Shown here piece by piece: positions 15,218 through 60,286 of a stretch of DNA of 64,000 nucleotides (positions are counted from its first letter, which is position 1; each line of letters starts with the position of its first letter). The notes below the pieces were generated by a model, which saw nothing but the letters and a program-made list of their open reading frames with translations, had not been told where the DNA came from and made no database searches. The translations under genes were made by a program, and so were the position numbers. Source of the DNA: Escherichia phage cardinal; sequence record PQ567651.1; one strand, written 5' to 3'.

Positions 15218-15450
15218 ATACTTTCTGTACTATAAAACCGACTAAAAATCAAGATAATTCTGATTTATTGCGCTTTTAAGAGAGTAGGCTCAACAAATAA
15301 CAACAAATGAGGTATGTTATAGGGGCAATAGTATGAAAAATCATCTATTCAGATGTAAATAATTTTGCGCAATAGTGGTAATATTTTTCTTGACAAGAAA
15401 GATTTCTTTGTGTGCACATAGCGCCCCTGGAGGGTGGCGCATTATGATCA

Positions 15451-15504
15451 TCAGTGTCATTATTCATTTCAGTGTCATTATTCATTTCAGTGTCATTATT
15501 CACC
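15451..15504. repeat. tandem direct repeat, 3 x 18 bp
   Basis: tcagtgtcattattcatt repeated three times head-to-tail. Confidence 0.9.
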
Positions 15505-15604
15505 ATGTTTATTATTGCATAGCTTATTATATGGAGCTTATATTATAGCCAATGTTCTAAACATTAGCTAATAATAACGCACCGCAACAATGTAAGGGAT
15601 ACAA

Positions 15605-37472: not shown

Positions 37473-37473
37473 A

Positions 37474-41091: not shown

Positions 41092-41526
41092 ATGTCTATT
41101 GTGACACAAATGAAAGCAGATCGTATCTTAGCACGTACAACCGATAAGGGTGCTTTTGCTTTGTTAACTAATATTATTGGTGAGTTTGACCTTGCTCGTA
41201 CTCAAAAGGCAAATCTGAATAAATCAGAAGATGATATTATGATTAACATTGTTAAGATTGGTATTGCACACGCTAAAGAGGAACTAGACTCGCTTAAGAA
41301 AGTTAATGCCTCCATTAGCAAATGTGAGCGAGCTATGCGTGATATCACCACTCTGGAGAAATATTTACCAGAAATGCTATCTGAAGATGATCTTCGAGCT
41401 ATTGCCGAAGAATTTGCCTTGACAGGCAAGAAAATGCCAGATATGATGAAACACCTTAAAGCAGAGTATCCGAATCAATATGATGGAAAACTTGCTTCTA
41501 CCATTGCAAAAGAAATTTTAAACTAA
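41092..41526 (+). CDS. GatB/YqeY-domain protein
   Basis: LSEDDLRAIAEEFALTGKKMPDMMKHLKAEY resembles YqeY C-terminal pattern. Confidence 0.5.
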   Translation: MSIVTQMKADRILARTTDKGAFALLTNIIGEFDLARTQKANLNKSEDDIMINIVKIGIAHAKEELDSLKKVNASISKCERAMRDITTLEKYLPEMLSEDDLRAIAEEFALTGKKMPDMMKHLKAEYPNQYDGKLASTIAKEILN

Positions 41527-42583: not shown

Positions 42584-43441
42584 ATGACCCAAAAACTATA
42601 TGAGGATGTAATCGGATTCCTCGAACAAACATCCGAAGAATTTACTCGTGAAAATGCAAACAAACCTGCAATGATTGTTAATACTCACCGAGATTTACTA
42701 GCAGGTATCCTAAGCAAGCACATGGCAATGACCCATATTTTACCTGAAGATTTAGCAGAATGGCATAAAAGTGGGTATGGTCACATCCACGATTTAGATT
42801 ATTTACTCTCACCTTTAACTAATTGTTGCCTGGTAAATTACCAAGATATGCTTGAGAACGGTTTCCGTATTGGTAATGCACATATTGAAAAACCAAAATC
42901 TATCGGTGTAGCGACTACTGTCCTAACTCAAATTATTCAAGCAGTAGCTTCTAGCCAATATGGTGGACAAACTTGTGCACATGTTGATACTGGGCTTAGT
43001 CAATACGTTAAAGCAAGTTTTAATAAAATATATGCCGATGTTGGCGATTATGATATTGCTATGCGTATGGTAGATAAACAGGTCTATGATGCAATGCAAA
43101 CTTTAATCTACCAGGTGAACACTCTAATGAGTGTAAATGGTCAGTCACCTTTTATAACAATTAGTTTAGGTTTGGATACCTCTGCTTTTGGTAGAATGAT
43201 CACTAAAAACTACCTAATGGTGCACAAACAAGGATTGGGAAAAGATAGGGTAACTCCTGTGTTTCCTAAAGTTATCTTCTTCTTGGAAGATGGTGTTAAC
43301 ATGAAAGCTGGCGATCCAAACTATGATTTGAAGCAACTGGCAATGGAGTGTTGTGCTGAACGCATTTATCCTGATTTTATCTCTGTACCTTTAAACAAAG
43401 AAGTTACAGGATCTTCAGATGGTCGCGTCACAAGCATGGGT
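42584..43441 (+). CDS. nrdD: anaerobic ribonucleoside-triphosphate reductase NrdD, exon 1 (3' boundary approximate)
   Basis: N-terminal NrdD-like sequence ...GYGHIHDLDY...; frame hits stop inside intron. Confidence 0.75.
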
Positions 43442-43688
43442 AAACTATAACTGCTCATGTAAAATCTGCCTAAACGGGGGAACTCTCAACGAGACAATCC
43501 CGTGCTAAACGTAACAGAACTCCCAACACAGAAGAAGGGGGGTACTATTACGAAATGCCTAACGACTAGCTGTGATGAATGTAGCAGCGTAGGGTGTAAG
43601 CCTATGACACCCCAAATGGTAGACATGCTTTAAGCATGAAGATATAGTCTGATCTGCATGGTGACATGCAGCAGCACGTAATGGTGCG
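43442..43688 (+). ncRNA. group I self-splicing intron (ORF-less) in nrdD; boundaries approximate
   Basis: aaatctgcctaaacggggg...gagacaatcccgtgctaaa...aatgcctaacgacta...aagatatagtctga.ctgcatggtgacatgcag resembles the T4 nrdD (sunY) intron core as recalled from memory. Confidence 0.7.
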
Positions 43689-44663
43689 GGAGTGGCCTTG
43701 CGAGCCACTTTGAACATAATGTGTAGAAGTTTCTTGTCATACTATGCAACAGAGCAAGGTGAAAAATATGATGGTCGTTTCAACTTAGGCGTAGTTTCTT
43801 TAAACTTACCTATCATTGCAGCAGAGTCCCGTGAAAAGGGCATCTTATTTACTGAACTGTTGGAACAACATATGGAGATGGCGTATAAGGCACATATGCT
43901 ACGTGTTAACCGTATTAGACATACCAAAGCATCTCAAAACCCTACATTGTTTATGGAAGGGGCTTTAGCTCGACTAGAAGCTAATGAAGAGATTGGTAAA
44001 CTATTTGAAGGTGGTTATGCCTCTATTAGTATCGGTTATGTAGGTTTAGCAGAAGCTATGGAGATTTTATACCCAAATAACACCAATCCAAAAGCAATGG
44101 GTAAAAACATCCTTCAATATATGAAGGATATCTGTTGCACATTTAAAGAACGTTCTGGTTTAGCTTTTAGTTTGTATGGAACACCAGCAGAATCCTTGTG
44201 CTATAAATTTGCCAAAGCGTTAAATGATCGCTATCCTGGCTCTATTGATCGTGACTATTTGACAAACTCTTTCCATCAACCTGTATGGATGCACACTACC
44301 CCGTTCCAAAAGTGGGATTATGAGGAAGGTTTTGCACAAATTAGTAATGGTGGGAACATAGGTTATGTAGAAACACCAAACCTTAAAAATAACTTGCAAG
44401 CACTGGAAACTCTTGTAGATTATGCCTACAATAAAATTCCTTATTTTGGCGTGAACCAACCTGTAGATCAGTGTTTCAAATGTGGTTTTCATGGTGAATT
44501 TAAGGCAACAGCTAAAGGCTTCGAGTGTCCAAGTTGTGGAAATCATGAAGAAGAATCCATATCTGTGATCAGAAGAGTGTCAGGATACCTTTCTGCTCCT
44601 AACTCTCGCCCTTATAATAAAGGTAAGATGCAAGAGGTACTAGAAAGGGAGAAACACTTTTGA
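43689..44663 (+). CDS. nrdD: anaerobic ribonucleoside-triphosphate reductase NrdD, exon 2 (5' boundary approximate)
   Basis: NIMCRSF near exon start; C-terminal glycyl-radical motif RVSGYL and Zn site CFKCGFHG...CPSCG. Confidence 0.8.
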   Translation, partial: GVALRATLNIMCRSFLSYYATEQGEKYDGRFNLGVVSLNLPIIAAESREKGILFTELLEQHMEMAYKAHMLRVNRIRHTKASQNPTLFMEGALARLEANEEIGKLFEGGYASISIGYVGLAEAMEILYPNNTNPKAMGKNILQYMKDICCTFKERSGLAFSLYGTPAESLCYKFAKALNDRYPGSIDRDYLTNSFHQPVWMHTTPFQKWDYEEGFAQISNGGNIGYVETPNLKNNLQALETLVDYAYNKIPYFGVNQPVDQCFKCGFHGEFKATAKGFECPSCGNHEEESISVIRRVSGYLSAPNSRPYNKGKMQEVLEREKHF

Positions 44664-45150: not shown

Positions 45151-46311
45151 ATGTTTACAGTATTCGGCAATCAAATCTTTCTGCGTCAGAAATCTGGTAC
45201 AGATATTGAAGAAATTCCAGCAGGAACTTTTGGTGTAGGTGTTACTCAAAGTGGTGAGTTCTTCCTGTATCCTAAAAACGATATGGAAGTCCCTTCAGTA
45301 ACATACGGTGATACTGATGATAAATCAGAACGTATTATCAAAACGTTCCTTAGCCGCAAAGGTAAAAACACAGGTGTTCTCCTTGAAGGTACGAAAGGTA
45401 GCGGTAAAACTTTGCAAGCTAAAATGCTGTCTTCTGCTCTTCGTGAAATGGGTATTCCTACTATTTCTATCGGTAGTGCTTTTAATGGTGAAGGCTTTAT
45501 CAATTTTATGTCTAAAATCACACAACCTGTGATGATTATGATCGATGAATTTGATAAACTGTATGCTGAAAAAGATGCACAAGATGGTTTGCTTACCCTG
45601 CTGGATGGTGTTGGTGGCTACGACAAACTGTTTGTATTGACTAAAAATGATGGTTATGTATCAGAATTTTTGCGTAATCGTCCTAGCCGTATTTTCTACA
45701 GTTTTAGCTATAAGAAACTACCTAAAGCTACTATGGATGATTATCTGGCTAAAAATCTGGAGAACAAAGCCTTCTTACCAGACTTTGAAACGCTTTATAA
45801 TCTCTCCGTGGATTTGAACTTTGATATTGTTCAGTCATTAGTAGAAGAACTTAACCGTTACCCTAATGACAAATTTTCTGATGCACTTGCACTAATGGGT
45901 ATCAGTATTACTGAACACCGCTATGCTGCAAAAGAGGTTAAACTTCTGAAAGTTAACGGTGTAGATCGTACAGGAGATGTTTCGGCAGATACCGATATTG
46001 ACGGTATGACAGCACAAGGTTTGTTTAGTGGTAATCGTTATGTTGTAGCTGTAGACCATAAACTAGGTGAAGAGCATCTTCCTGAAATGGAAGGGATCGT
46101 TACCGTAGAAGATAAAGATGAAGAAGGTGACTACTACTGGGGTGTAGACCGTATCTTGCTAACGTATGATGAAAAACACATCCGTACAATGGGTGGTGAC
46201 GGTTATCACTTTATGTTCACCGATGATAAAGGTAACAACATTGAAGTTGTTATTAAAAACAAAGAACGTAAAAACTACACAGAGTATGTGTTTGGTGGTC
46301 GTTCTTACTAA
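45151..46311 (+). CDS. P-loop ATPase (paralog of 29011-30139)
   Basis: Walker A EGTKGSGKT, Walker B VMIMIDEFDK; collinear similarity to the minus-strand paralog. Confidence 0.6.
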   Translation: MFTVFGNQIFLRQKSGTDIEEIPAGTFGVGVTQSGEFFLYPKNDMEVPSVTYGDTDDKSERIIKTFLSRKGKNTGVLLEGTKGSGKTLQAKMLSSALREMGIPTISIGSAFNGEGFINFMSKITQPVMIMIDEFDKLYAEKDAQDGLLTLLDGVGGYDKLFVLTKNDGYVSEFLRNRPSRIFYSFSYKKLPKATMDDYLAKNLENKAFLPDFETLYNLSVDLNFDIVQSLVEELNRYPNDKFSDALALMGISITEHRYAAKEVKLLKVNGVDRTGDVSADTDIDGMTAQGLFSGNRYVVAVDHKLGEEHLPEMEGIVTVEDKDEEGDYYWGVDRILLTYDEKHIRTMGGDGYHFMFTDDKGNNIEVVIKNKERKNYTEYVFGGRSY

Positions 46312-46316
46312 GTGAT

Positions 46317-46345
46317 AAAAGGAGGCGAAAGCCTCCTTTATTTAT
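46317..46345 (+). terminator. rho-independent terminator
   Basis: aaaggaggc-gaaa-gcctccttt then atttat. Confidence 0.5.
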
Positions 46346-46357
46346 ATGGAGGGTATT

Positions 46358-46549
46358 ATGGATCATTATTTTGTTTTTAAAGATAAAGTTGATACAGCAG
46401 GTGGTCACGTTGCTAAAAATGATCGTGACATTAAAGAAGTATTAGGAGATCTGATTAACATTTTAGAACAAAAAGAGTTGCTTTTAGATAAGGATATTGC
46501 TAGACTTCTTGGTGTGGGGATAAGTGATATACAAAGATTACCATTCTAA
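46358..46549 (+). CDS. hypothetical protein
   Basis: ORF with TGGAGGG RBS. Confidence 0.45.
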   Translation: MDHYFVFKDKVDTAGGHVAKNDRDIKEVLGDLINILEQKELLLDKDIARLLGVGISDIQRLPF

Positions 46550-46560
46550 AGGGGAAGAAA

Positions 46561-46716
46561 ATGCTTACAGATGATGAATATAAAGCTATCCAAGAAAAAC
46601 TAACGGAGCTTGAAATTCTTGCTGTCAATATTAAAGATCAATCACATGCTGGAAAGTTACTACATCAAGAGATCAATAAAATTAAGCAGATGATATTCTT
46701 TTGGACGGAGGATTAA
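46561..46716 (+). CDS. hypothetical small protein, 51 aa
   Basis: AGGGGAAGAAA RBS; not in track. Confidence 0.4.
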   Translation: MLTDDEYKAIQEKLTELEILAVNIKDQSHAGKLLHQEINKIKQMIFFWTED

Positions 46717-46718
46717 AA

Positions 46719-47375
46719 ATGACTGTTAAGCATATTTCTTTTGATGTATGGAACACTCTTATTACTGCTAATCCTTTGTATGCAGAAGAGCGCAACAAGG
46801 TAATTGCCGAGTATGCCTCTTGTTCTGAGGCAGAAGCAGCAACTGTATATAAAGAAGTAAAAACTCTCCTGGATTTAAGAGCAGAAAAAGGCATTTGTGG
46901 AACATCTAGAAATGCTTGGGAAACACTTTCTGCTCATTTGAACATTGATCTTGATAAAGTAGATGGGTTAAAAAGAGACTGTTTAGCAATGTTTATAAAA
47001 CATCCTCCAATATTAAACCCTGAACTTTGCAAGAAGTTGGAAGAGCTAAGTTCAACCTATTCTTTGAGTATTAAAAGCAATACCAATTTTGTACCTGGTA
47101 GTTTCTTAGCTGTATATTCTGGCTTGACAAAATTACCATTTGACTTTATGCATTTTTCTGATGAGTTTTGCTTGTGTAAACCAGATCCCAGGTTTTTTAA
47201 ACTCTCTTTTGATGAAATGGTAACGTTTGATCTCGCACCAGAGGAGATCTTACACGTTGGAGATAGTTTGATCTATGATGGAAAAGCTGTTGACATAGGG
47301 ATGAAGTTCTGTCATATTATTAATCCAGAAGACTTGTTGGCTAAACTTAAAAAAGAGGAACTTATTAATGCGTAA
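46719..47375 (+). CDS. HAD-superfamily hydrolase-like protein (variant motif I)
   Basis: ISFDVWNTLI (motif I-like, second Asp replaced) and HVGDSLIYDGKA (motif IV GDxxxD). Confidence 0.5.
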   Translation: MTVKHISFDVWNTLITANPLYAEERNKVIAEYASCSEAEAATVYKEVKTLLDLRAEKGICGTSRNAWETLSAHLNIDLDKVDGLKRDCLAMFIKHPPILNPELCKKLEELSSTYSLSIKSNTNFVPGSFLAVYSGLTKLPFDFMHFSDEFCLCKPDPRFFKLSFDEMVTFDLAPEEILHVGDSLIYDGKAVDIGMKFCHIINPEDLLAKLKKEELINA

Positions 47376-48225
47376 TCAAATTCAACATTTTGCTAATATT
47401 TTTACTAACCTGAAGGAAGCAAAATTTAACATTGCAGATTATTCCAAGCTAAAGTTTGGTAGTAACCAGGCAGCAAAAAGAATGGGGCGCATTCTGGCTG
47501 AAAGTTTCTTTTCCAAGTATGAAGAACGACTGGTAAATGAAAGTTTTGTTGTTATTCCATCTCCATATAACTATGTGAAAAATGCAGCTACAGTGTTATC
47601 TGAACATTTTGTAGATCACCTCAACTACCTAATCTCTATCAAAGGAGGTAAAGCAGTGGAGTGGGATATCGTTCATCGTAAAGTGAGCTATATCAATGAT
47701 TATGGATTTCTTAGCAAAGAAGATCGTAAGGCTTTGATCGATGGTGACACTTTCTCTATCAATCGTGATTTCTGGGGTAATAAAACTCTGATTTTCATTG
47801 ATGATGTTAATATTACAGGAACGCACGAAGAAAAACTTATTGAAATTTTAGACAAAGAAGGTGTTGAAAACGATACGTTTTTCCTGTACTTTGCAAAGTA
47901 TGAAGGTACAGAAGCCAACACCGAAGCTGCACTTAACTTCAACTATATCAATAACCTGGCAGCTTTTATTAAAATGATTAAGCAAGAAACTGATGCTAAA
48001 TGTTTGGTTCGTCCTATTAAGTATCTAATGAGTCAAAGCGAAGTTGATTTTAAAATTGCACTTTCACAGCTTCCTTTGTATTATGTAGAACAACTGTTCT
48101 TTGGTTGCCTTGCAGAAGGCTACAATAACATTGAAAAATATAAAGAGAACTTTGATTTCCTGCGTCAATTTTTTGAAAGCAACATTATCAACAAATCTAA
48201 TGTTAAAGGGGATTATTATGTCTAA
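47368..48225 (+). CDS. type I phosphoribosyltransferase (PRTase)-like protein
   Basis: PRPP-binding signature TLIFIDDVNITGTHEE. Confidence 0.6.
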   Translation: MRNQIQHFANIFTNLKEAKFNIADYSKLKFGSNQAAKRMGRILAESFFSKYEERLVNESFVVIPSPYNYVKNAATVLSEHFVDHLNYLISIKGGKAVEWDIVHRKVSYINDYGFLSKEDRKALIDGDTFSINRDFWGNKTLIFIDDVNITGTHEEKLIEILDKEGVENDTFFLYFAKYEGTEANTEAALNFNYINNLAAFIKMIKQETDAKCLVRPIKYLMSQSEVDFKIALSQLPLYYVEQLFFGCLAEGYNNIEKYKENFDFLRQFFESNIINKSNVKGDYYV

Positions 48226-48934
48226 TAAAGTAATGACTTTCGGAGATCCTATCACCAATATTACAGAAAAAGATTTTGGGCGTGTAGCAACAGATAAAGA
48301 TGGTGTCTTAAGAATTCGTGTACAAGGTATTACAGCACAGGATGAATATGCTGTGTATGTTTCAGGTCTTAACTATATTGATGATCGCATTACACAAAAC
48401 TTTGCACTGATCGGTGGTGTAGAGAAAATGTATTGGGAAGATGAAATTGTAACAAGTTATCCGGCAGGTATCATTGAGGTATACGGTGATCTTTTAGCAG
48501 CAGCCGAGAGAGGCGATATAGACGCTATAGCACACTGCTGTAACTGTTTTTGCACTATGGGTAGTGGTATTGCACCAAAAATTAAAAGCAAGTGGCCTGG
48601 TGCGTTTAAAGCAGATTGTGCCACTAAACGTGGTGATTATAAAAAATTAGGTACGTTTACCAAATATACAGAAAACAATTTGACAATTTATAATTTATAT
48701 GGACAATATGGTTATAGTCGTCGTGAGGAAGGTAAGCGTGACCTGAATTATGAAGCTATCTACAATGCGTTAGATAGTATGGGAGACGATGTTGTATCTT
48801 CAGGCGGTAAAGTTGTAGGTTTACCGATGCTGGGTTGTGGTTTGGCTGGAGGGTCTTGGAATATTGTAAAACTTATGATCGAAGAAACTCTAGTAAACAA
48901 AGGTTTAAATGTAATTGTTTACAAACTGAAATAA
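48218..48934 (+). CDS. macro-domain-like protein (tentative)
   Basis: IAHCCNCFCTMGSGIAPKI and GLPMLGCGLAGGSW resemble macro-domain glycine-rich motifs; AAAGGGG RBS. Confidence 0.4.
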   Translation: MSNKVMTFGDPITNITEKDFGRVATDKDGVLRIRVQGITAQDEYAVYVSGLNYIDDRITQNFALIGGVEKMYWEDEIVTSYPAGIIEVYGDLLAAAERGDIDAIAHCCNCFCTMGSGIAPKIKSKWPGAFKADCATKRGDYKKLGTFTKYTENNLTIYNLYGQYGYSRREEGKRDLNYEAIYNALDSMGDDVVSSGGKVVGLPMLGCGLAGGSWNIVKLMIEETLVNKGLNVIVYKLK

Positions 48935-48943
48935 GGAGAAAGT

Positions 48944-49150
48944 ATGGCAGGTGTTTTAGCAGTATTAGGTTGTTTTATTGTTGTGTTTTTGATTGTGTTA
49001 ATCCCTAGTTGGCTGCTGCTTTTAGCATACAACTATATGATTGACATTATCGGTTTAGACTGGCATCATGTTCCTGTAACGTTTTGGAGTGTAGTCTGTG
49101 TGACGTTCATTCTTGCGGTACTTCGTGGTATCTTTCAATCTAACAAATAA
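48944..49150 (+). CDS. small membrane protein
   Basis: 68 aa hydrophobic; AAGGAGA RBS. Confidence 0.5.
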   Translation: MAGVLAVLGCFIVVFLIVLIPSWLLLLAYNYMIDIIGLDWHHVPVTFWSVVCVTFILAVLRGIFQSNK

Positions 49151-49177
49151 GAGAGGATTTTTATATGCGTAAAGTAA

Positions 49178-49414
49178 ATGTTGAAGTGCTTGAAAAAATT
49201 TAGAAACACTCGTGATTGTACTATCGGCAAGGTTTACGAGGCTATTCTCCTTGAAGATGGAGATCAAGTTCCTGCCCCGTATCACGCCTTTAATGGTCAG
49301 ATTAGCAAAGTGGAAGGTGGTATTGCTATTTGCTTTATTGATGACGTAGGTGATGCTGTAGCTTTCCCTATCATTAACAAAGAAGATAAACTTAAAATTA
49401 CAGAACTGAACTAG
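49178..49414 (+). CDS. hypothetical protein (start uncertain; possible frameshift from 49165)
   Basis: RBS GAGAGG serves ATG 49165, which terminates after 12 codons at an A6 run; long frame starts at ATG 49178. Confidence 0.4.
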   Translation: MLKCLKKFRNTRDCTIGKVYEAILLEDGDQVPAPYHAFNGQISKVEGGIAICFIDDVGDAVAFPIINKEDKLKITELN

Positions 49415-49491
49415 TTGACTTTCTTTAAAAACAGTTTATAGTATAAGACATAGAGCGGAGGATTGTCCTCCGCATTAAAGAGGAGAAAAGA

Positions 49492-50469
49492 ATGCAACTG
49501 GGTTTCCCAATTATTGATGTGGTTGTTTTAGTGGGTATTTTAGTCTTGTCGATTTGTATTGACTTCTTTGGACACAGAGAAAACAAAGAAATTTCATTTA
49601 AATCGGCAGTTGGTTGGTCAATTTTCTGGATTGGAGTATCATTAGCCTACTATGGTTTTGTATACTTCCAACACGGTGCTGATTTTGCGAGCTTGTTCTT
49701 GAGTGGGTATGTGTTGGAGAAATCTCTTTCTGTAGATAACTTAGTAGTATTTGTGGCAGTATTCGCAAGTTTTGGTATTAAAAGCACACACTTGCAACAC
49801 AAGATTCTACTTTGGGGTATTGCAGGTGCGATTGTCTTCCGAGGTGTGTTTGTAGCAGTAGGCACTTACTTGTTGAGTTTGGGCTGGTATGTTAATATCT
49901 TCTTCGGTGCTGTCATCCTTTTCTGTGCGGCTAAAATGGTATTCGCTGGAGATAATGATGCAGAAGTTGATTACTCTAAACACTGGGCTACTCGCATTGT
50001 TCGTAAGCTGTTCCCTGTATCTGATCAGATGGATGGTGAGAAGTTCTTCACAATCAAAAATGGTGTTCGTGTAGCAACTCCGGCTCTGGTTTGTGTGTTT
50101 GTAATGGAAATGGTTGACGTAATCTTTGCAGTAGACTCTGTTCCAGCAGTAATTGCAGTGACACAAGAACCTCTGCTTGTATTTTCTTCGATGCTCTGTG
50201 CAATCTTAGGTTTACGTGCTCTGTTCTTTGTTCTTAGTGTTGCACTGAAGTATTTGGTTCATCTGGAGAAAGCAGTTATCGTAGTCCTGGTATTTGTGGG
50301 TGCAAAACTGATGTATCATCCGTTTGCAGAAACTCTGCACGCAAAAATGAGTTTCCTGCCAGCACACATTGATCCGACGATCAGTATGTATATTGTGTTA
50401 GGTACTCTTGGGTTGGGTGTTGTTGCAAGTTTAATCTTCCCTGAAAAAGAAGATCAGACTGTTGCTTAA
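49492..50469 (+). CDS. terC: TerC-family integral membrane protein
   Basis: multiple TM helices and TerC signature LEKSLSVDNLVVF. Confidence 0.8.
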   Translation: MQLGFPIIDVVVLVGILVLSICIDFFGHRENKEISFKSAVGWSIFWIGVSLAYYGFVYFQHGADFASLFLSGYVLEKSLSVDNLVVFVAVFASFGIKSTHLQHKILLWGIAGAIVFRGVFVAVGTYLLSLGWYVNIFFGAVILFCAAKMVFAGDNDAEVDYSKHWATRIVRKLFPVSDQMDGEKFFTIKNGVRVATPALVCVFVMEMVDVIFAVDSVPAVIAVTQEPLLVFSSMLCAILGLRALFFVLSVALKYLVHLEKAVIVVLVFVGAKLMYHPFAETLHAKMSFLPAHIDPTISMYIVLGTLGLGVVASLIFPEKEDQTVA

Positions 50470-50475
50470 TTCATT

Positions 50476-50498
50476 AAGCCCCTTCGGGGGCTTTGTTG
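50476..50498 (+). terminator. rho-independent terminator
   Basis: aagcccc-ttcg-ggggctt then tgttg. Confidence 0.55.
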
Positions 50499-50508
50499 AG
50501 GTGATCTG

Positions 50509-50715
50509 ATGGTGGTTTTACGTGTTCTTTGGATTCTGTTTGAAAATATTTGTTTTGCTCTAGGGTTGTTTTGTTTGATTTTTATCTTGACAACATATAT
50601 TGATAACCATACAATTACTATCAACAGGAACGGAGAACAGATGTATTGTTTCTCTAGGGATTTTAAAAATTGTGTTGAGACTTTAAATGAGAGGGTTACA
50701 AATGAAAAACATTAA
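50509..50715 (+). CDS. small membrane protein
   Basis: 68 aa with hydrophobic N-terminus. Confidence 0.45.
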   Translation: MVVLRVLWILFENICFALGLFCLIFILTTYIDNHTITINRNGEQMYCFSRDFKNCVETLNERVTNEKH

Positions 50716-51292
50716 ATCTTTTATTGTTGCAGTTGTTTTAGGTAGTGCATTGCTGGTAGGTTGTGATGATTCTGAAAATGTACAAAATCAACGTTACCAA
50801 CAAACACCAAATCAGATGGTAGATGAACAATATGTAAATCAGCCTGCACCTCAAGTTGTTCAAGCAGCACCTGCACAACCTTCAACAGTTGTTGTGCAAG
50901 GAGGCGGCAGTGGTTCTTCTGGCGTAGGTGAGTTTGCTACAGGTATGCTTCTTGGTCATATGTTGAGTGGTAATAGTGGCGGTGGTGGTTATAGAGATGG
51001 CGGTAGCAATACAACAATTATTAATAACAACGCTGCTCCTACAACTAACAGTAAAGCATATACAACACAAAAACATAGTTTTTATGATAAACAAGGGAAT
51101 ACATATACAACAACTAAACAAAACACAATTAAGCAGCAAAGTGTACAAACGTATTCACGCCCATCAACAACAAAAGTGAATAGTGATTACTCTGCTCGTA
51201 AGTCTTACTCAAGCCCTATTAGCTCTTATAGTAAGTCTTCGAAAAGTTATTCTTCGTCGAAACGTAGTTTTAGTAGCTCACGTCGTCGTTAA
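50702..51292 (+). CDS. putative lipoprotein with Gly- and Ser/Thr/Tyr-rich low-complexity regions
   Basis: signal peptide with lipobox MKNIKSFIVAVVLGSALLVGC; C-terminal SYSSPISSYSKSSKSYSSSKRSFSSSRRR. Confidence 0.6.
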   Translation: MKNIKSFIVAVVLGSALLVGCDDSENVQNQRYQQTPNQMVDEQYVNQPAPQVVQAAPAQPSTVVVQGGGSGSSGVGEFATGMLLGHMLSGNSGGGGYRDGGSNTTIINNNAAPTTNSKAYTTQKHSFYDKQGNTYTTTKQNTIKQQSVQTYSRPSTTKVNSDYSARKSYSSPISSYSKSSKSYSSSKRSFSSSRRR

Positions 51293-51327
51293 TAATTTAA
51301 TACAGATTAAATAAGAAGGAGAAACAG

Positions 51328-52179
51328 ATGAAACTAGAAGTTGGTAAAGTGTATCGCCTGGAAGGTTGGATCTTTAATCAAGAAATTCTTGAGAAGAATA
51401 AAGATGGTTTTGAGTTTGTTGGTACTACCAAAGAAAGTATGCACGATGACGAATACTGTAAATTCGTTGGTAAAAATACAGGTCAAGAACAATTTTGCTT
51501 TAAAAGCGCAATCGGTGATTATGCTTCTGTAATGCCAACACCAGAAAAGACTTCGAAGCAATATACTGTCTTTGGTGTAAAACTTGAAGAACTTGTAGAA
51601 CACCCACGTTTTGAAGAGTTCAAGGTTGCTGCAATGCGCAAGCATTCTGAAATTAAAATACATAATTTGTTTGATTTAGAAGATCGGTTTGATATCTTTA
51701 TGTATGATCGCAGGGAAAAGCATTTTGATGCAACGACTTCAAAATTTGCTGCAACAGAGGATATTAAAATCCTTGATGTTGATACCTTTCTTGAGAGTGT
51801 ATCGTTTGTATTCATCCATAAATACAAGAAACGTAGTGATCATAAACGTGTGAAAGGAACTCCTCGTAAGAAACGTACTGTAAACAAAGCAACTTTGCAC
51901 TTCACTTCTGGTGATAAATATACTCTCAAAGGGTTTGAAAGTGTTTTGTATGATGCTGGAACGGGTAATATCAAGTTTATTATTAAGGCAACCTACAAAG
52001 GTACGGTATTGCACGAAGAGGCTGTTACACTACCTGTATTCGATATCTCTCGTGTTGAGGTACGGGGTGTTAAAGAGTCCTTCGATCTGGATTTCTTAAC
52101 TGCTAATACCACGGGTTATGTTAATCTGGAAGCAGATGGAGCATTTATTACTACAAATTATTTAGATATGTTTGTTTAA
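51328..52179 (+). CDS. hypothetical protein
   Basis: 283-aa ORF, AAGAAGGAGA RBS. Confidence 0.5.
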   Translation: MKLEVGKVYRLEGWIFNQEILEKNKDGFEFVGTTKESMHDDEYCKFVGKNTGQEQFCFKSAIGDYASVMPTPEKTSKQYTVFGVKLEELVEHPRFEEFKVAAMRKHSEIKIHNLFDLEDRFDIFMYDRREKHFDATTSKFAATEDIKILDVDTFLESVSFVFIHKYKKRSDHKRVKGTPRKKRTVNKATLHFTSGDKYTLKGFESVLYDAGTGNIKFIIKATYKGTVLHEEAVTLPVFDISRVEVRGVKESFDLDFLTANTTGYVNLEADGAFITTNYLDMFV

Positions 52180-52247
52180 TACTTAACTTGTGTTATGATG
52201 GTGGTACAGAGGTATCACCATTTACTAAAGAATATGGAGGAAATTGA

Positions 52248-53351
52248 ATGTCCAGTCCTTTTATCAGTGCCGTAAAAAGCAAACCGTCTGAAATGAGTGT
52301 ATTCACGGCAACAACAGAAAAAAGTAAGTCTTTGTTTGCTCCAAGTGCTATGGATGCAAGCCCTGTATATGCCCCTGCTGTTGCACGCCCTGTACAAATG
52401 CTGCCTCCAATGTCTCGTGAAGAGATTGAACAGGTTGGTGCTGATGCAGGACTTACTCTTCGTAACCTTAATGCTGAAGTGCTTAAACACCAGCGTTCAT
52501 CTCAGGGAGATGAAATGAGTGAACGTTTAACTGCGCTTATTAAGCAAGCAAAGCAACTTGATCCTAACTCTATTAAACAATCTAAAGGTTTAGGTAAACT
52601 AGTTAAGAAAGTTTTAGGTATGAAAGAAGATTTGTTTGGAGAATTTGACACCATCAATAACCGTATTGAAGGTTTGGTAAAGACACTCCAAACAGACTTG
52701 AAAAAAGAAGAAGATTCTTTACGATATCTGCAACGTTTAGAGGAAGCTATTGCAAAATATGCTCTTAGCTTAAACAGGGATATAGAGCTTCTAACAGCTA
52801 CTTATGAAAAAGAAGAAGTTCGCCTTAATACACTACCTGAAAATGAGGTAGAAGAGCGTCAACGTACTCGTGATACTATGGATCTGCTTGAAATTCGTAT
52901 TGCAGACCTGAAAGCCTTACGCTTACTATGTGTTCAGATGGGGCCACGTGTACAAAGTATGCAGAAAGTATCTGCAAGTTTGATGCGATCAGCCCGTAAT
53001 ATTGTGAATAATGTTATTCCTGCTTACTCTGCAAACTTTTCTATGTATATTGAAAGTCTACGCCAGAAGAAAGCAGCCGATACACAGAACAATGTACTGA
53101 ATGAATTTAATGCTGCTATTGCAATGGGTAGTGATCTGGCTGCACAAAACCAGATTGAAGCTACACAACTTGCTAATCGTCAAGTATTGGATATTGAAAC
53201 ATTGCGTCGTGATCAAGAAAACTTAGTTAAAATGTTGGAAGAAACTAACCGAATCAACACTGAAGCCCGTGCTGCTCGTATTGATTACATTCAAGAAGTG
53301 CAGTCTCTTGAAGATGGTATGATTCAAACTGTTAAACGTGGTCTACTTTAA
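52248..53351 (+). CDS. TelA-like (toxic anion resistance family) protein, tentative
   Basis: 367-aa mostly helical/coiled-coil protein; call rests mainly on size, composition and Ter-gene context. Confidence 0.4.
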   Translation: MSSPFISAVKSKPSEMSVFTATTEKSKSLFAPSAMDASPVYAPAVARPVQMLPPMSREEIEQVGADAGLTLRNLNAEVLKHQRSSQGDEMSERLTALIKQAKQLDPNSIKQSKGLGKLVKKVLGMKEDLFGEFDTINNRIEGLVKTLQTDLKKEEDSLRYLQRLEEAIAKYALSLNRDIELLTATYEKEEVRLNTLPENEVEERQRTRDTMDLLEIRIADLKALRLLCVQMGPRVQSMQKVSASLMRSARNIVNNVIPAYSANFSMYIESLRQKKAADTQNNVLNEFNAAIAMGSDLAAQNQIEATQLANRQVLDIETLRRDQENLVKMLEETNRINTEARAARIDYIQEVQSLEDGMIQTVKRGLL

Positions 53352-53364
53352 GGAGAAATATATT

Positions 53365-53571
53365 ATGAATATTAAAATTTACAAACTGTCTGGTTCTATG
53401 ATTGCTGTTCAGTATGACAATGAAGATCGTTATGTTCTCCTCCAGGATGCTTGGTTAGATGATCCTAATGTATTCACTGTCCTGCGAGAACTACGTGCTG
53501 TCTATACCTATTCTTCTAAAGATGGTTTTGACAATTCAACAATGGAATTGGTAAAAGAGGAGAATGTGTAA
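53365..53571 (+). CDS. hypothetical protein
   Basis: ORF with AAGGAGA RBS. Confidence 0.45.
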   Translation: MNIKIYKLSGSMIAVQYDNEDRYVLLQDAWLDDPNVFTVLRELRAVYTYSSKDGFDNSTMELVKEENV

Positions 53572-53771
53572 TGAGTAAAGATATTCACTTAACTCGTGAA
53601 GAATTGCAAACCATTATGGAAGATGCTTTCATTGATGGTTGGAAACAAGGTCAAGAATCAGATTGGTATGATGCCGAAGATTTTTTGTATTATCATATGA
53701 CTGCACCTGTAGACGAGCAAACACACTCTGAAACAACTTTGGCTTTAATTGATCTTAAGGCTGGTGTATAA
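53571..53771 (+). CDS. hypothetical protein
   Basis: 66-aa ORF, overlapping start/stop. Confidence 0.45.
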   Translation: MSKDIHLTREELQTIMEDAFIDGWKQGQESDWYDAEDFLYYHMTAPVDEQTHSETTLALIDLKAGV

Positions 53772-54334
53772 TGGGGTGTTTTAGTTTCTTGTGCAAAGAG
53801 TCTGGTAATGCTGCTCTTTCTACCTCTTTCGATGGCTCTCCTTGCTACCTATTTCTTTTGAAAGGTGGTAAGGTTGTCGAAGAGATGTATGGGAATTATG
53901 ATAGCTATGGTAGTGTTTTCTCTAACGAAGAAGATAAACATGGCAATCGTAAAAGATTCAAGTGGTCTATGCCTTGGGAAGAAGTTTGTAATTTGATGTT
54001 CTCTTCCGATCTTGGAGATGGGATTGCTCTGGTATTAGAAGAGCACTTTACAGGCGAGATCCCAACAGAAAGATCTGAAGAAGATCCTAACCAGGGTTGG
54101 GGTGATGGGGAAGAAGATCCAGATTGCTTCTTCAGCACTGAAAATAATAAATTTAAACGTGTTGACAATCCTTACCACAAAGTGCATAATACTTGCATTG
54201 AGACAGAAGAAGACTCAAAGCTAGAAATTGAAGATGATTTAGTTGTAACTATCTCTTTAAACGAGTTGCAAAAGATCACCAGAGAGGCTTTCTATTTAGG
54301 CTTGAGAGCAGGTAAAGGAGAAGACAGTGCTTAA
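53771..54334 (+). CDS. hypothetical acidic protein
   Basis: 187-aa ORF. Confidence 0.5.
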   Translation: MGCFSFLCKESGNAALSTSFDGSPCYLFLLKGGKVVEEMYGNYDSYGSVFSNEEDKHGNRKRFKWSMPWEEVCNLMFSSDLGDGIALVLEEHFTGEIPTERSEEDPNQGWGDGEEDPDCFFSTENNKFKRVDNPYHKVHNTCIETEEDSKLEIEDDLVVTISLNELQKITREAFYLGLRAGKGEDSA

Positions 54335-54596
54335 ATTTAATATCAAAGACGACAAATCAGATGAACCTAAATGTTTTGGAGAACTTGACGTAGGTGATAC
54401 ATTTGTATATTATGTTGCCTATCAAGATTCTGGTTTAGATACGTTCAGAAACTTAGTGTTTATTAAAGTTAATACAAACCAAGCAATGTGTCTGAACGGT
54501 TCGCAAAGAGGTCAAATTAGCTGTATTTCGTATGATACAGAAATGGTAGAAGTGGATTTAGAAGTTACTAACATTACACTCAGAAAGGAGAAATAA
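54327..54596 (+). CDS. hypothetical protein
   Basis: 89-aa ORF, GTG start with AAAGGAGA RBS. Confidence 0.4.
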   Translation: MLKFNIKDDKSDEPKCFGELDVGDTFVYYVAYQDSGLDTFRNLVFIKVNTNQAMCLNGSQRGQISCISYDTEMVEVDLEVTNITLRKEK

Positions 54597-54597
54597 T

Positions 54598-55391
54598 ATG
54601 TCCAATAAAATCAGTCTTAAAAAACGTCAAGAAACTCTTACCGTATCTCTGCGTAAGAAAAAGATTAACGATGTTGTTCTTCGTGTCGGTAGCGCCTTAG
54701 ATATTTCGGGTAGTATGTGTGAGCTGTATCGTGATGGCACTGTTAGTGATTTTGTAGGTAAGCTGCTGCCGTTTGGTATGAAGTTTGATGATAATGCACA
54801 GATTGACATGTGGGCTTTCAATAGTTCTTCTTTTGAACTGCCTCCTGCAACGGCTGATGTATATGATGATTATGTCGGCTCTTGTATGTCTAACGTTTGC
54901 ATCAATGGTGGTACAGCTTATGCTCCAGTAATGCAAGAGATCTATGATACATACTTCGGTAGTGTACCTATGAAAAATATTACACGCGAAGTCGTTGAGT
55001 ATGAAGAAGTTCCGGCTAAGGGTTTCCTTGCTAAACTAACTGGTAAAAAGAACTTGTAGAAGTAACACGTACTGTTGTAGAACAGGTTGTAGATACTGAT
55101 GCACAAGTTGATCGTACTCCTGCAATGATTTTCTTCCAAACTGACGGGGAGAACATGGATACTTCAGCAGTACGTAGCTTACTGAACAAACACCGCAATA
55201 CGCCTGTTTACTGGTTTATGGTTGGTGTAGGTAATGCAAACTTTAAATTCCTGAAAGACTTGGCAAAGGAATACGATAATGTTGACTTTATCGGTATTGC
55301 AGATTTGTCCTTGTCTGATGAAGAACTTTACGATAAACTGTTATCCGAAGAGTTTGGTGAGTGGGTTAAAAAATTTGGAGCAAAAGCGTAA
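54598..55391 (+). CDS. von Willebrand factor A (vWA) domain protein (TerY-like), interrupted by a frameshift at an A5 run (~55045-55049)
   Basis: MIDAS motif ALDISGSM, NGGTAYAP; after TAG at 55057-55059 the domain continues in another frame (...MIFFQTDGENMD...). Confidence 0.6.
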
Positions 55392-55463
55392 AAAACGCTT
55401 GACTTTGTAGAAAAGATTAGTAAAATAGACAACGTAAATTAACAACAAAGGAGATAATAAATT

Positions 55464-56060
55464 ATGACTCAGAAAATTTCCCTGAAAAAAGGTTCTAGCG
55501 AAAAAGTTTCTCTGAAAAAGATCGCACCAGCACTGAAACGCATTCGTCTGGAATTCTCTTGGAAATCTAACGAAAAACTGGATCTGGATGTTAGTGCTCT
55601 GATTTGCCGACACAATGCATCTGGTCTGCCGGAACTGTTGTCTCCTCGTCACCTGGTGTGCTACGCGCAGAAATTTGATCCTGAACGTTCTACTTTTGCA
55701 GGTGAAGATGTTCGTGATGGTGTAGGACAGATGGAGCAGATCGATGTTACTCTGGATAATATCTCTGCTGAAGCACAGGAAATTGCATTCGTAATTACTA
55801 TTGATGACGAAACGGGTAAGAAACGCCTTGGTCACGCTACCGAAGGTTTCCTTAAAATCTTCGATGATGAACGTAACGTTGAACTGCTGGATTTTGACTT
55901 CTTGGCTCCAGAACTTGCAGGTAATACCATTTGCCACGTTGCCTCCCTGGTGCGGGAAGATAATGAATGGAAACTGAAAGCATATGGTGTAGGTAAAGCT
56001 GGACTTGACATTTATGATGTAGTTAAAGCGTTTGGCGCTGGTGACGATTGGTTCGAGTAA
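55464..56060 (+). CDS. terD: TerD-family protein
   Basis: collinear with E. coli TerD: SLKKGSSEKVSLKK, DLDVSALIC, IAFVITIDDE, NEWKLKAYGVGKAG. Confidence 0.8.
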   Translation: MTQKISLKKGSSEKVSLKKIAPALKRIRLEFSWKSNEKLDLDVSALICRHNASGLPELLSPRHLVCYAQKFDPERSTFAGEDVRDGVGQMEQIDVTLDNISAEAQEIAFVITIDDETGKKRLGHATEGFLKIFDDERNVELLDFDFLAPELAGNTICHVASLVREDNEWKLKAYGVGKAGLDIYDVVKAFGAGDDWFE

Positions 56061-56068
56061 TAAATCAT

Positions 56069-56093
56069 AGCGCCCTTCGGGGCGCATATTTTA
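56069..56093 (+). terminator. rho-independent terminator
   Basis: gcgccc-ttcg-gggcgc then atatttt. Confidence 0.55.
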
Positions 56094-56112
56094 AATAGAA
56101 GAGGAGAAAACA

Positions 56113-56715
56113 ATGGGTATTACTTTAGAAGGTCAAAAACTTATTCGTAGCGGTAATTTTCTTGTAGATATTGACAACAATGAAGATTATGCTTTAGAAG
56201 TTAGTGATGTACTGTTTGATGCTTTGCAGTCTGGTTTCAATTTTGAAGTTTATGAAGTAATCCGTGGAACTAAACTCAGAGAAACCCTTGGATCAACTAG
56301 TGATGTTTATTCTGCGATCTGGCAATATTTCGGGTTAATGGATGGTAAGACATACCTTACTGATAGTTATTCTGAAGATGTTGTTTATCTTGATATGGAA
56401 GAGTTTCGTCGTCTGTTCAAGAATGAAGAAAATGAAGAAGAGGGCGAACTTTTTGAAGGAATTACTCTCGAAGGTAATGTTGAAATTGTGTATAAAGCAG
56501 GAAAAACATTCCACTTGCGCGAAAACGGTAAAGCAAAAGTTGATTTTGTAAACAAGACAGTGACAACCGAACATAATTATCTTAAAGATGGTCAACCAGC
56601 TTTTGAACGTGTAAAAATTAAATTTAAAGTGTTGTCTGCACTAGTTACGGATCAAGAACGTATTGATTTTGTAGAAGATGGTGTAGTAACTCATACAAAG
56701 GTTTACAATATCTAA
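56113..56715 (+). CDS. hypothetical protein
   Basis: 200-aa ORF, AGAGGAGAAAA RBS. Confidence 0.5.
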   Translation: MGITLEGQKLIRSGNFLVDIDNNEDYALEVSDVLFDALQSGFNFEVYEVIRGTKLRETLGSTSDVYSAIWQYFGLMDGKTYLTDSYSEDVVYLDMEEFRRLFKNEENEEEGELFEGITLEGNVEIVYKAGKTFHLRENGKAKVDFVNKTVTTEHNYLKDGQPAFERVKIKFKVLSALVTDQERIDFVEDGVVTHTKVYNI

Positions 56716-58065: not shown

Positions 58066-58629
58066 ATGATATTTCACATAACTCCCTATCTTTCTGGAGA
58101 TATTGGAAAAGGTATCAATGACACAATAAGTGTCTTACCAGAAGATAGTTGGATTTGCCTAAGAGACATTGATACAATGTTTCTTCTTCCAGAACAACCT
58201 GCTTGGTTGGAATCAATAGTCCGTTCAAATCCTGATTTTGATGTTCTTGGTGCATCTTGTAATAGATTGGGATCAACATATCAATTATTTAATAATGAAA
58301 GAAGTGAAGATCCAAATATATTACACCACATTGAGATTGCAAAAAGAGCACATCTAGAATGGGGAAACTCAATAGAGGAAGTACCTACAGATGCTATCTT
58401 AGCAGGATTCTTTCTTCTCTTTCGTAAGAGTCTGTGGAATGAAATCCCTTTTGAGGAAAGATCAATACAGTTTGATATAATTTTCTCTAAAGCATTACAC
58501 GCTAACAATAAAAGGCTAGGTTTATTACGTGGGCTATATTTATTTCACACATACCGTTTAGGTAGTGATGATCCTAGGAAAGCTGTTTCACACCTTTTAC
58601 ATTGTCAAGACATGAATAAAATTATTTAA
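58066..58629 (+). CDS. hypothetical protein (possible glycosyltransferase-like)
   Basis: 187-aa ORF with DID motif (CLRDIDTMFL); assignment weak. Confidence 0.35.
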   Translation: MIFHITPYLSGDIGKGINDTISVLPEDSWICLRDIDTMFLLPEQPAWLESIVRSNPDFDVLGASCNRLGSTYQLFNNERSEDPNILHHIEIAKRAHLEWGNSIEEVPTDAILAGFFLLFRKSLWNEIPFEERSIQFDIIFSKALHANNKRLGLLRGLYLFHTYRLGSDDPRKAVSHLLHCQDMNKII

Positions 58630-58638
58630 GGAGTTATT

Positions 58639-59325
58639 TTGGAAAATACAAAAATTGGTGTTGGTGTTATTACTGTAGGTAAGCGTCCTCTTAAAGATTA
58701 TCTTGTGACTGATCCTAATGCTACTTTTGTTGTACAGTATGATCGGGAACGAAAAGGTGTTGCATATGCCCGTAATGAACTGATGAAAAAGTTTTATGAT
58801 GAAGGGTATGATTACTGGTTTATTTTTGATGATGATTGTTATCCGGTTGTGCCAGGTTGGGAAACATATTTTGTAAAACAGGCTAAGGAAAATGGTTGGG
58901 ATTTCTTTGGTATGCCTGAATACTTTAAAGATAAAGTAAAAGGTATTGAAGGTGAAGTGGTTATTTGGGAACTAGGTATGTGCCAGTTTGGTATGTATTC
59001 CCGTGCAGTTATTGAGAAAGCTGGCTATTTCCGTTCATACACCCACGGTTATGGATATGAAGATGCAGAGTGGATTCAGCGCGTTCCACTGGCAGGTTTG
59101 AACCGAGGTATTCTCGGCGTACCATGTCCTATTCGAATTATGGCGTTTATCCATCCTGACGATGTGTTTGGAGATAATCCTTTACCTTTTGCGAATCTGT
59201 CAAAAGAAGAGAAAGAACAGGGGATTGGTGTAAACTGGGAACAATATAAACAATCACTGGAGGATCTTCGCAATGGTAAAACTTTTATCTCTTATGAGGA
59301 GGCTCAAAAATATGGTAAGTCCTAA
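58639..59325 (+). CDS. putative GT-A-type glycosyltransferase
   Basis: DYWFIFDDDCYP (DxD-like) after N-terminal nucleotide-binding-like segment. Confidence 0.4.
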   Translation: MENTKIGVGVITVGKRPLKDYLVTDPNATFVVQYDRERKGVAYARNELMKKFYDEGYDYWFIFDDDCYPVVPGWETYFVKQAKENGWDFFGMPEYFKDKVKGIEGEVVIWELGMCQFGMYSRAVIEKAGYFRSYTHGYGYEDAEWIQRVPLAGLNRGILGVPCPIRIMAFIHPDDVFGDNPLPFANLSKEEKEQGIGVNWEQYKQSLEDLRNGKTFISYEEAQKYGKS

Positions 59326-60286
59326 TACTCCTGTACTTAAGTGTGATAATAAGTTAGGCAGTGGTTGTGATTACCATCGTATTGTAATGCCGTTTGCGGG
59401 AAATACATTTAAACCTAAGAAAGACGTTTTGGTTTTTAATAGAGTGTATTCTCGTGGATCAGACGAGGTTAAACGCCTGAAGGCACAAGGTGTTAAGATT
59501 ATTGTTGACTTAGATGACTTTTATTCACTTAACCCTGAACATTATATGGCTGGCGTATTTACTAATCACTCAAAGACTATTGTAGAGATGATTAAGTTAG
59601 CAGATGTTGTTACTGTAACAACAGAATATCTAGCTTACAAAATTCGTCATTTAAACCGTAATGTTGTCGTTATTAGAAACGCACTGCCTTACGACGAAGG
59701 TCAATTTACTTTGACAAAAGACCGTTATTCTGACACGCCTATTATTTGGGCTGGAGGAGCAAGCCATGAGCCTGACTTATCTCTTGTAGCTAATACATTT
59801 GATGATACACTATTGACAATTGCAGGGTATGAAGTGTATCCTTCTGCACCTGTTGGAAATAATAGTCAGTATCTAACTACTGCGGAGTGGGTTAAAGTAA
59901 AACGTAAAATTCCAAATGCACAGTATAAACCAGCTATTAAAAATTTAGGTGAGTATATGTCTGTGTATGACGGTCACAGTATTGCAATTGCTCCTCTGGT
60001 AGATAACGACTTCAACAACTGTAAAAGTAATTTGAAGATTTTGGAAGCAGGTGCAAAGGGTCTTCCTATTATCTGTTCTCCTGTGCTGCCGTACTTCAAT
60101 CCGGTAGATGCAAAGGCTGTTATCTATGCAGACTCTAAAGCATCTTGGCATTATGAAGTTGTCAAGCTAATGAGAAACCCTAGATACACAGAAGATCGTG
60201 GTATGATGCTTGCAGAACACGTTCGTCTTAATTATAATCTTGCAGATGCCAATGAACTGCGTCGTCAAGTTATTGAAAGTCTTTAA
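59312..60286 (+). CDS. putative GT-B glycosyltransferase (paralog A)
   Basis: C-terminal KSNLKILEAGAKGLPIICSP (GT1/GT4-like E..G.P motif); GAGGAGG RBS. Confidence 0.5.
   Translation: MVSPNTPVLKCDNKLGSGCDYHRIVMPFAGNTFKPKKDVLVFNRVYSRGSDEVKRLKAQGVKIIVDLDDFYSLNPEHYMAGVFTNHSKTIVEMIKLADVVTVTTEYLAYKIRHLNRNVVVIRNALPYDEGQFTLTKDRYSDTPIIWAGGASHEPDLSLVANTFDDTLLTIAGYEVYPSAPVGNNSQYLTTAEWVKVKRKIPNAQYKPAIKNLGEYMSVYDGHSIAIAPLVDNDFNNCKSNLKILEAGAKGLPIICSPVLPYFNPVDAKAVIYADSKASWHYEVVKLMRNPRYTEDRGMMLAEHVRLNYNLADANELRRQVIESL

Follow-up and report, generated by a model that had tools for sequence, protein, structure and literature searches.

Ter operons, which occur in many pathogens and were discovered decades ago, are tied to resistance against phages, colicins, metals, and macrophages. 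Bacteria require terC, terD, and terZ to inhibit phages and to resist colicins, the smallest functional unit of the operon is reported to be TerC-TerD, and deletion of terC in Klebsiella pneumoniae results in larger plaques and in Zn and Mn sensitivity (PMC12054061). Phage-borne Ter systems with a phosphoribosyltransferase (PRTase) and a HAD hydrolase were reported by Iyer, Anantharaman, Krishnan, Burroughs, and Aravind in 2021, e.g., a "relatively complete" system with PRTases and HAD in Acinetobacter phage vB_AbaM_ME3 and abbreviated TerD/TerC/TerF/TelA operons in Caulobacter jumbo phages; smaller tailed phages are also mentioned, and competition with superinfecting phages (superinfection exclusion) was proposed as the role of these systems (PMC7824862). 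A report of 2015 had pointed to gp172, gp173, and gp178 of phage phi92 as Ter proteins (PMC4690881), and subsets of Ter genes were noted in Klebsiella phage phiKp34 (PMC8386662) and in the phiPsa374-like Otagovirus phages of Pseudomonas (PMC9796965). The current study concerns positions 45151 to 56715 of a 64,000-nucleotide stretch of Escherichia phage cardinal (PQ567651.1), here called the window, for which an initial annotation had proposed a Ter-like gene cluster of implied novelty. The cluster is real, conserved, and under selection, and it is of an already published kind: in view of the reports of 2015 and 2021, the novelty implied at first is too high, and the finding reveals no new kind of system. 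New here are the six-gene core, the obligate pairing of HAD with a downstream PRTase_3 gene and the D-x-W motif of the HAD protein, together with a lineage-restricted macro gene, an in-place exchange of TerC for a DUF475 protein, and stand-alone islands in Rhizobiaceae.

The cluster resembles the systems of the 2021 survey in that a lytic phage carries TerC, TerD, TelA, and a TerF-type vWA protein plus PRTase and HAD, and in the proposed arrangement of a small-molecule arm, a ligand-binding TerD, membrane and sub-membrane effectors, and competition with superinfecting phages. It differs in its carrier, a non-jumbo Escherichia coli myovirus of about 146 kb that belongs to the Stephanstirmvirinae (the term "phi92" occurs 0 times in PMC7824862), and in the presence of just one PRTase, a member of PRTase_3 (phage ME3 being compared by its description only), a macro gene after the PRTase, and lineage-specific genes for a lipoprotein and small transmembrane (TM) proteins. 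With the bacterial terZABCDEF operons of the IncHI2 plasmid R478, E. coli O157, and K. pneumoniae and with telA/klaA, the phage cluster shares TerC, a TerD-domain protein, a TerF-type vWA protein, and TelA. It has, however, a single TerD-domain gene instead of the TerB/TerA/TerZ/TerE paralogue set, its vWA protein stands alone with only a short TerD-like N-terminal motif and lacks a fusion to a complete TerD domain, and the bacterial and phage Ter proteins are just 25 to 30% identical. Phages phiKp34 and phiPsa374 are likewise virulent and possess the terC, terD, terF-vWA, and telA subset (PMC8386662, PMC9796965), but neither report lists a PRTase or HAD. Many phages have vWA or other Ter genes without PRTase_3, e.g., the Pseudomonas Otagovirus records scanned here, in which the vWA gene was present and PRTase_3 was not found.

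All sizeable open reading frames (ORFs) of 45151-56715 lie on the plus strand with nrdD/nrdG immediately upstream of the cluster, and Pfam located the domains of the initial annotation at the places where they had been predicted. Its three clear calls stand: the ComF-like type I PRTase (47368-48225) matches PRTase_3 (PF15610) with an E value of 1e-41, the TerC/Alx-family integral membrane protein (49492-50469) PF03741 with 3e-38, and the TerD-domain protein (55464-56060) PF02342 with 4e-28 (98.6 bits). TelA (52248-53351) had rightly been recognized, but its description as a weaker call was too cautious, given a PF05816 match with an E value of 5e-34 that spans positions 13 to 330 of the 332-position profile. 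Its AlphaFold2 model is all-helical and of low confidence (pLDDT of 57), so that the protein is predicted to be composed of long helices; PDB sequence searches with TelA, the 187-aa ORF, and the 283-aa ORF gave nothing useful. The HAD-superfamily hydrolase (46701/46719-47375), also regarded as uncertain at first, falls marginally below the Pfam cutoff (PF00702; 26.2 bits, cutoff of 26.4), and full-length NCBIfam HAD-IA matches and conserved motifs back the assignment.

The vWA-TerF-like gene (54598-55391) was correctly assigned to its family (PF10138), but the copy in the window is broken. It is split into 54598-55059 and 55125-55391, with the two halves covering profile positions 3 to 98 and 108 to 195, and alignment with phages Paula and ALITA places the lesion, the loss of one A from an A6 run, at 55045-55049. 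The gene measures 794 nucleotides (nt) in the window versus 795 nt in 54/54 relatives. Compared with Paula, dN is 0 in both halves and dS ranges from 0.04 to 0.19, which indicates either that the frameshift arose very recently or that the homopolymer was misread. The sequence at this place, U AAA AAG (55042-55059), resembles a −1 slippery site, but since all of the 54 relatives contain the in-frame A6 run, a deletion or read error is simpler than a programmed frameshift, and the latter was rejected. The stand-alone vWA protein begins with ISLKK...VSLRKK (54598-54670 in the window; 15447-15520 in locus L001, one of the PRTase_3 loci compared below), and the first strands of TerD read ISLKK...VSLKK. 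The shared N-terminal motif looks as if it were a remnant of a TerD-vWA (TerF) fusion.

The recurrence of the gene set was assessed for 43 PRTase_3 loci from GenBank phages, metagenome contigs, a GTDB genome scan, and an IMG/VR scan, whose ORFs were searched iteratively with the window proteins; the scan of bacterial genomes used strict peptide patterns, yielded 15 loci, and under-samples bacterial PRTase_3. HAD is located directly upstream of PRTase_3 in all 43 loci, irrespective of whether they originate from phages, metagenomes, or bacteria. The recurrent core comprises six genes, namely, HAD, PRTase_3, TerC, TelA, vWA-TerF, and TerD, and all-against-all clustering of the loci revealed no seventh universally recurrent gene. 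Outside the Stephanstirmvirinae, Ter genes are found within 10 kb of the pair in L006, L007, L024, L025, L030, L034, L036, L038, L039, and L043, and in at least seven independent viral contigs the pair is situated inside a Ter operon. It lies between TerC and TerD in the jumbo-phage contigs L030 and L036, the order in L038 is TelA-HAD-PRTase-vWA-TerC-TerD, and L006, L034, L038, L039, and L043 exhibit further gene orders. The co-occurrence of six families in independent phage lineages with differing gene orders shows that their grouping is not due to chance, and the proposed tie of PRTase and HAD to Ter genes is thus borne out in unrelated phages. In Caulobacter, Brevundimonas, Xanthomonas, and Rhizobium phages, no Ter gene is located nearby, with TerD or vWA encoded elsewhere in the genome, and every phage lineage found with PRTase_3 has at least one Ter gene in its genome. 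Klebsiella phage FKP3 encodes a DUF475 protein (E value of 2e-92, with a weaker TerC match too) at the place of TerC (L010, 13541-14593), and this in-place swap by a related or analogous protein argues for functional coupling.

The window phage belongs to the genus Justusliebigvirus (phi92-like), and more than 50 deposited phages of this genus, among them phi92, Paula, arall, and alia, are 98 to 99% identical across the full 11.6 kb. Matches of lower similarity extend to Phapecoctavirus and to Klebsiella and Citrobacter relatives (about 120 records in total), and synteny is maintained across genera at 48 to 81% amino acid identity. In the records of these relatives, parts of the cluster are labeled as tellurite or toxic-anion resistance, TerC, orotate PRTase, hydrolase, phosphatase, and macrodomain. 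Strain K-12 is listed as host in several related records, e.g., those of EmilieFrey, JohannJBalmer, and PaulScherrer. Five GenBank records (MG065639, MG065645, MG065656, MG065689, and MG065650) are named "Campylobacter phage" with C. jejuni as host; they share about 98% identity with Justusliebigvirus or Phapecoctavirus genomes from E. coli, and their host labels look doubtful.

The two enzymes of the core show the hallmarks of their superfamilies and peculiarities of their own. PRTase_3 has the phosphoribosyl pyrophosphate (PRPP)-binding loop and the fold of type I PRTases; the loop reads DDVNITGTHE, and DDVxITGTHE is invariant among the aligned homologs. Its structure was predicted with high confidence (pLDDT of 91) and resembles ComF best, followed by HGPRT/OPRT, with about 147 of 285 residues aligned at about 12% identity and the C-terminal helical domain outside the matches. 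This limited alignment sets it apart from ComF and from the nucleobase type I PRTases (HGPRT, OPRT, and UPRT), the zinc-finger region of ComF/ComFC was not detected, and a sequence search of the PDB revealed nothing close. Profile search and structure comparison therefore agree with the view that the enzyme is not an ordinary salvage PRTase. The family to which it belongs, PRTase_3, is ComF-like and linked to Ter. In the HAD protein, motif I reads S-F-D-V-W-N-T, i.e., the nucleophilic Asp is retained and Trp is found at position Asp+2. This Trp is invariant in eight aligned homologs, and D-x-W is present in 41/43. Motifs II to IV are canonical according to the alignment (S120, K154, and G181-D182...D187 are invariant), and motif IV appears as HVGD....D or HIGD....D in 41 of the 43 homologs. 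PADLOC provided no match for the PRTase, the HAD, or the Ter proteins.

The best-supported reading, which we consider an even call, is that these genes amount to a phage-encoded, cut-down Ter system with a HAD/PRTase_3 small-molecule arm that serves superinfection exclusion and the stability of envelope and ions. TerC, as a metal-ion transporter of the TerC/Alx type, would form its membrane and sub-membrane part together with TelA, the vWA/TerF-type protein with its metal-ion-dependent adhesion site (MIDAS), and the TerD-domain protein. PRTase_3 would couple PRPP to a base-like acceptor, HAD would process the phosphorylated product to a nucleoside-like small molecule, and this molecule would act with TerD and the membrane proteins as envisaged in the Anantharaman/Iyer/Aravind model. 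Made in the infected cell, the system may reproduce the effects of bacterial ter, i.e., it may inhibit phages, protect against pore-forming colicins, and confer tolerance of Zn, Mn, and tellurite, with the possible outcome that superinfecting phages are excluded and that envelope and ion balance of the infected cell remain stable until lysis. A minimal six-gene version of Ter that is under strong selection in K-12-infecting phages represents a tractable setting for studies of the mechanism, and these phages could allow direct tests of the PRTase_3/HAD product and of the superinfection-exclusion idea.

Several observations weigh against such a system. The main caveat is that the HAD-PRTase_3 pair probably works without adjacent Ter genes: the genome scan detected it as an isolated, low-GC island of two genes in 11 Rhizobium/Sinorhizobium/Ensifer assemblies (L012-L023, including pRL10 of R. 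johnstonii 3841; GC content of 0.47 versus 0.55 to 0.61 in the flanks), and no Ter gene is located within 10 kb of these islands. The pair is thus mobile and does not depend on neighboring Ter genes for its existence. No Pfam family corresponding to TerB, TerA, TerZ, TerE, ATP-grasp, or lyase matched the cluster ORFs; the full bacterial ter set includes TerB, TerA, TerZ, and TerE as well as an ATP-grasp protein and a C-C lyase, and the phage set is a shortened version of it. The D-x-D motif of HAD phosphatases is absent from the sequence D-V-W-N-T. Without the general acid at Asp+2, the role of a simple nucleotide 5'-phosphatase is not assured, and the term "phosphatase" is an assumption. The second acidic Ca loop of TerD is partly degenerate in the alignment with K. 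pneumoniae TerD (2kxt), and the frameshifted vWA gene of the window may mean that this component is dispensable in culture. The promoter-like sites of the cluster are not enriched over shuffled sequence, and the literature searched yielded no experimental study of a Ter cluster carried by a phage.

Among the competing explanations, the management of metal ions for the benefit of the phage deserves consideration, albeit as an unlikely one. TerC as an Alx-like Mn2+/Zn2+ exporter and metal-binding TerD and vWA proteins would adjust the levels of Mn, Zn, or Ca inside the infected cell or in its periplasm, so that enzymes of the phage or the host are protected or metallated; the exclusion of competitors would not be involved. 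The phage TerC scores 323 bits with the NCBIfam model TIGR03718 (TerC/Alx "metal homeostasis"; cutoff of 246), and in K. pneumoniae, terC makes cells resistant to Zn and Mn and Zn induces the ter operon (PMC12054061). TerD aligns with 2kxt across 176 residues and retains the first DxD motif, and the intact vWA orthologue has a complete MIDAS (DxSxS + T + D). That the cluster lies among nucleotide-metabolism genes, beside those of the metalloenzymes NrdD/NrdG, would also fit, but this adjacency is not conserved, as FKP3 lacks nrdDG at this position and the jumbo-phage contigs differ. Metal management moreover leaves unexplained why several lineages have the PRTase-HAD pair within the operon and why TelA is present, and the same bacterial genes also give rise to phage and colicin phenotypes.

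It is similarly improbable, in our judgment, that HAD and PRTase_3, with or without the macro protein, constitute a Ter-independent pathway of nucleotide, NAD, or ADP-ribose metabolism merely situated beside the Ter genes, be it for salvage, detoxification of defense nucleotides, counter-defense against ADP-ribosylation, or DNA modification. The stand-alone pair in Rhizobiaceae and its distance from Ter genes in Caulobacter, Rhizobium, and Xanthomonas phages are in line with such a pathway, but its insertion into Ter operons of at least seven independent contigs outside the Stephanstirmvirinae, and the Ter genes of every phage lineage with PRTase_3, are not. PRTase_3 is, furthermore, no known salvage family and has no close PDB relative by sequence. 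A 201-aa ORF that precedes HAD in sister genera is named MazG-like in one record, but this name has no Pfam support. Putative glycosyltransferases, one with a weak match to TET-associated glycosyltransferase (TAGT), are encoded 2 kb downstream; the idea of a modified nucleotide for the phage DNA found no support here.

The macro-domain protein (48218-48934, or 48101-48934 in the Pfam assignment; 238 aa) bears on the same question, given that its macrodomain resembles ADP-ribosyl hydrolases. The family assignment, initially a weak one, is confirmed by a Pfam match above the cutoff (PF01661, 31.1 bits with a cutoff of 22). The protein consists of an extra N-terminal part (about 85 aa), which sets it apart from SCO6735/BT1257/TARG1 (OARD1) and DarG, and a macrodomain that belongs by sequence to their clade, with PDB matches to 5e3b (E value of 3e-15), TARG1 (3e-10), and 2fg1. 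At the positions of TARG1 K84 and D125 it contains GQYG and GCGLAGG, as does SCO6735. In the comparison with the TARG1 sequence, the catalytic Lys (TARG1 K84/DarG K80) corresponds to Gln and D125 to Ala. The NCBIfam DarG model is matched only partially (49 bits versus a cutoff of 250), and a partial DarG match was all that PADLOC reported for this protein, with noise elsewhere. Since the catalytic Lys of TARG1/DarG and the Asp of TARG1 are missing and the score is far below the cutoff, an identity as a DarG-like anti-DarT protein was rejected, and the lack of both residues also counts against the Ter-independent pathway. Across the 43 loci, macro adjoins PRTase_3 only in the Stephanstirmvirinae, so that its initial inclusion in the Ter association is not upheld. 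Rather than a Ter component, it is probably an accessory in its own right that handles ADP-ribose in this subfamily of phages, and for the macro protein taken alone, we lean slightly towards independence from Ter.

The distribution of the HAD-PRTase_3 pair over phages of several bacterial phyla and the Rhizobiaceae islands also suits a bolder proposal that we regard as distinctly improbable: an autonomous, horizontally mobile two-gene cassette, characterized by the D-x-W motif of HAD, would produce a ribosylated small molecule as a chemical signal or inhibitor made by the phage. As parts of this proposal, phages would combine the cassette with TerC, which would export or receive the molecule, and with TerD as its sensor, the non-canonical HAD would perform chemistry beyond simple dephosphorylation, and the function would be to exclude rivals or manipulate the host instead of copying its stress response. 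Finally, a dispensable, hitch-hiking moron block copied from a ter island of the host and devoid of a lytic role, to which the frameshifted vWA gene and the variable slots of the block between genera might point, is very improbable given the purifying selection on all genes (dN/dS of 0 to 0.12 versus Paula, and dN of 0 in both vWA halves), the cross-genus synteny at 48 to 81% amino acid identity, and the absence of close bacterial donors for phage TelA (best bacterial identity of 27%) and PRTase_3 (the closest relatives with inspected contigs are phage-like).

Apart from the six core genes that would make up the cut-down Ter system, the region contains genes of narrower distribution. The conserved unit extends from about 46346 to 56060, since the genes at both ends of the region lie behind terminator-like hairpins and are missing from sister genera; Phapecoctavirus ESCO13, for example, lacks both. 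These flanking genes encode a 386-aa AAA/P-loop ATPase (45151-46311; weak Pfam AAA match with an E value of 1e-6, PHROG 2376 "ATPase"), followed by a hairpin at 46318-46339, and a 200-aa protein (56113-56715; no Pfam match, PHROG 22473), preceded by a GC-rich, bidirectional terminator-like hairpin at the end of the cluster (56070-56085). Only the Stephanstirmvirinae possess the ATPase, the lipoprotein, the small TM ORFs, and the ORFs of 187, 200, and 283 aa, and the ATPase and the lipoprotein, both counted as members of the Ter association at first, thus drop out of the recurrent core.

Upstream of HAD, a small 67-aa ORF (46346-46549; PHROG 17780) is present throughout the Stephanstirmvirinae (homologs in L009, L010, L011, and L026-31). 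The 201-aa ORF mentioned above is an additional gene directly upstream of HAD in Phapecoctavirus and Klebsiella relatives (L009, 9745-10350; L010, 9742-10347), whereas the corresponding place in the window holds just a 51-aa ORF; its label as a "MazG-like pyrophosphatase" was discarded for want of a Pfam match. Two genes for small membrane proteins of 68 aa each were identified from their translations, a hydrophobic, two-TM-like one after the macro gene (48944-49150; PHROG 16065), which is restricted to the Stephanstirmvirinae, and a lineage-specific, single-TM one after TerC (50509-50715; PHROG 17591). The lineage-specific, low-complexity lipoprotein (50687-51292; PHROG 21570) shows the lipobox LVGC in its translation, and the Asp following the lipobox Cys predicts retention in the inner membrane. 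The 283-aa protein (51328-52179), which has no Pfam or PDB match, occupies a variable slot that differs in L009 and L010 and holds other genes in sister genera, e.g., a SprT-like one. The 187-aa protein (53771-54334; PHROG 14928), without a PDB match, is 75% identical in Phapecoctavirus. Sigma-70-like promoters, suggestive only, are located on the plus strand in the gap before TerC (49415-49442; TTGACT-16-TATAGT) and before TerD (55399-55426; TTGACT-16-TAAAAT). A yybP-ykoY-type riboswitch upstream of TerC was considered and dismissed, as an Rfam scan of the whole window at gathering thresholds gave only a group I intron. The 248-aa ORF on the minus strand (55341-56087), antisense to TerD, is unsupported and most likely spurious because the plus strand bears the strong TerD match.

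Some further observations were made in the vicinity of the cluster. The upstream nrdD gene (42584-44663) is interrupted by a group I intron at 43396-43671 (Rfam RF00028, 72 bits), in contrast to the uninterrupted, 1,800-nt nrdD of Paula. The ORF of a UvrD-like helicase (37435-40248; 937 aa) harbors an intein-like insert (Intein_splicing and Hint, residues ~267 to 613), and its Paula orthologue is annotated with a length of 1,737 nt. Downstream, three ORFs at 58066-60286, located 3' of a cell-wall hydrolase gene, are labeled as glycosyltransferases in relatives, and the one at 58639-59325 has a subthreshold TAGT match (23 bits versus 27.5). Four separate lineages of phages have a YqeY-like (GatB C-terminal-like) gene in the neighborhood of the Ter genes or of HAD-PRTase (41092-41526 in the window, 878-1279 in L034, 8813-9256 in L038, and 13317-13754 in L039), and in L038 it is situated directly between TelA and HAD.

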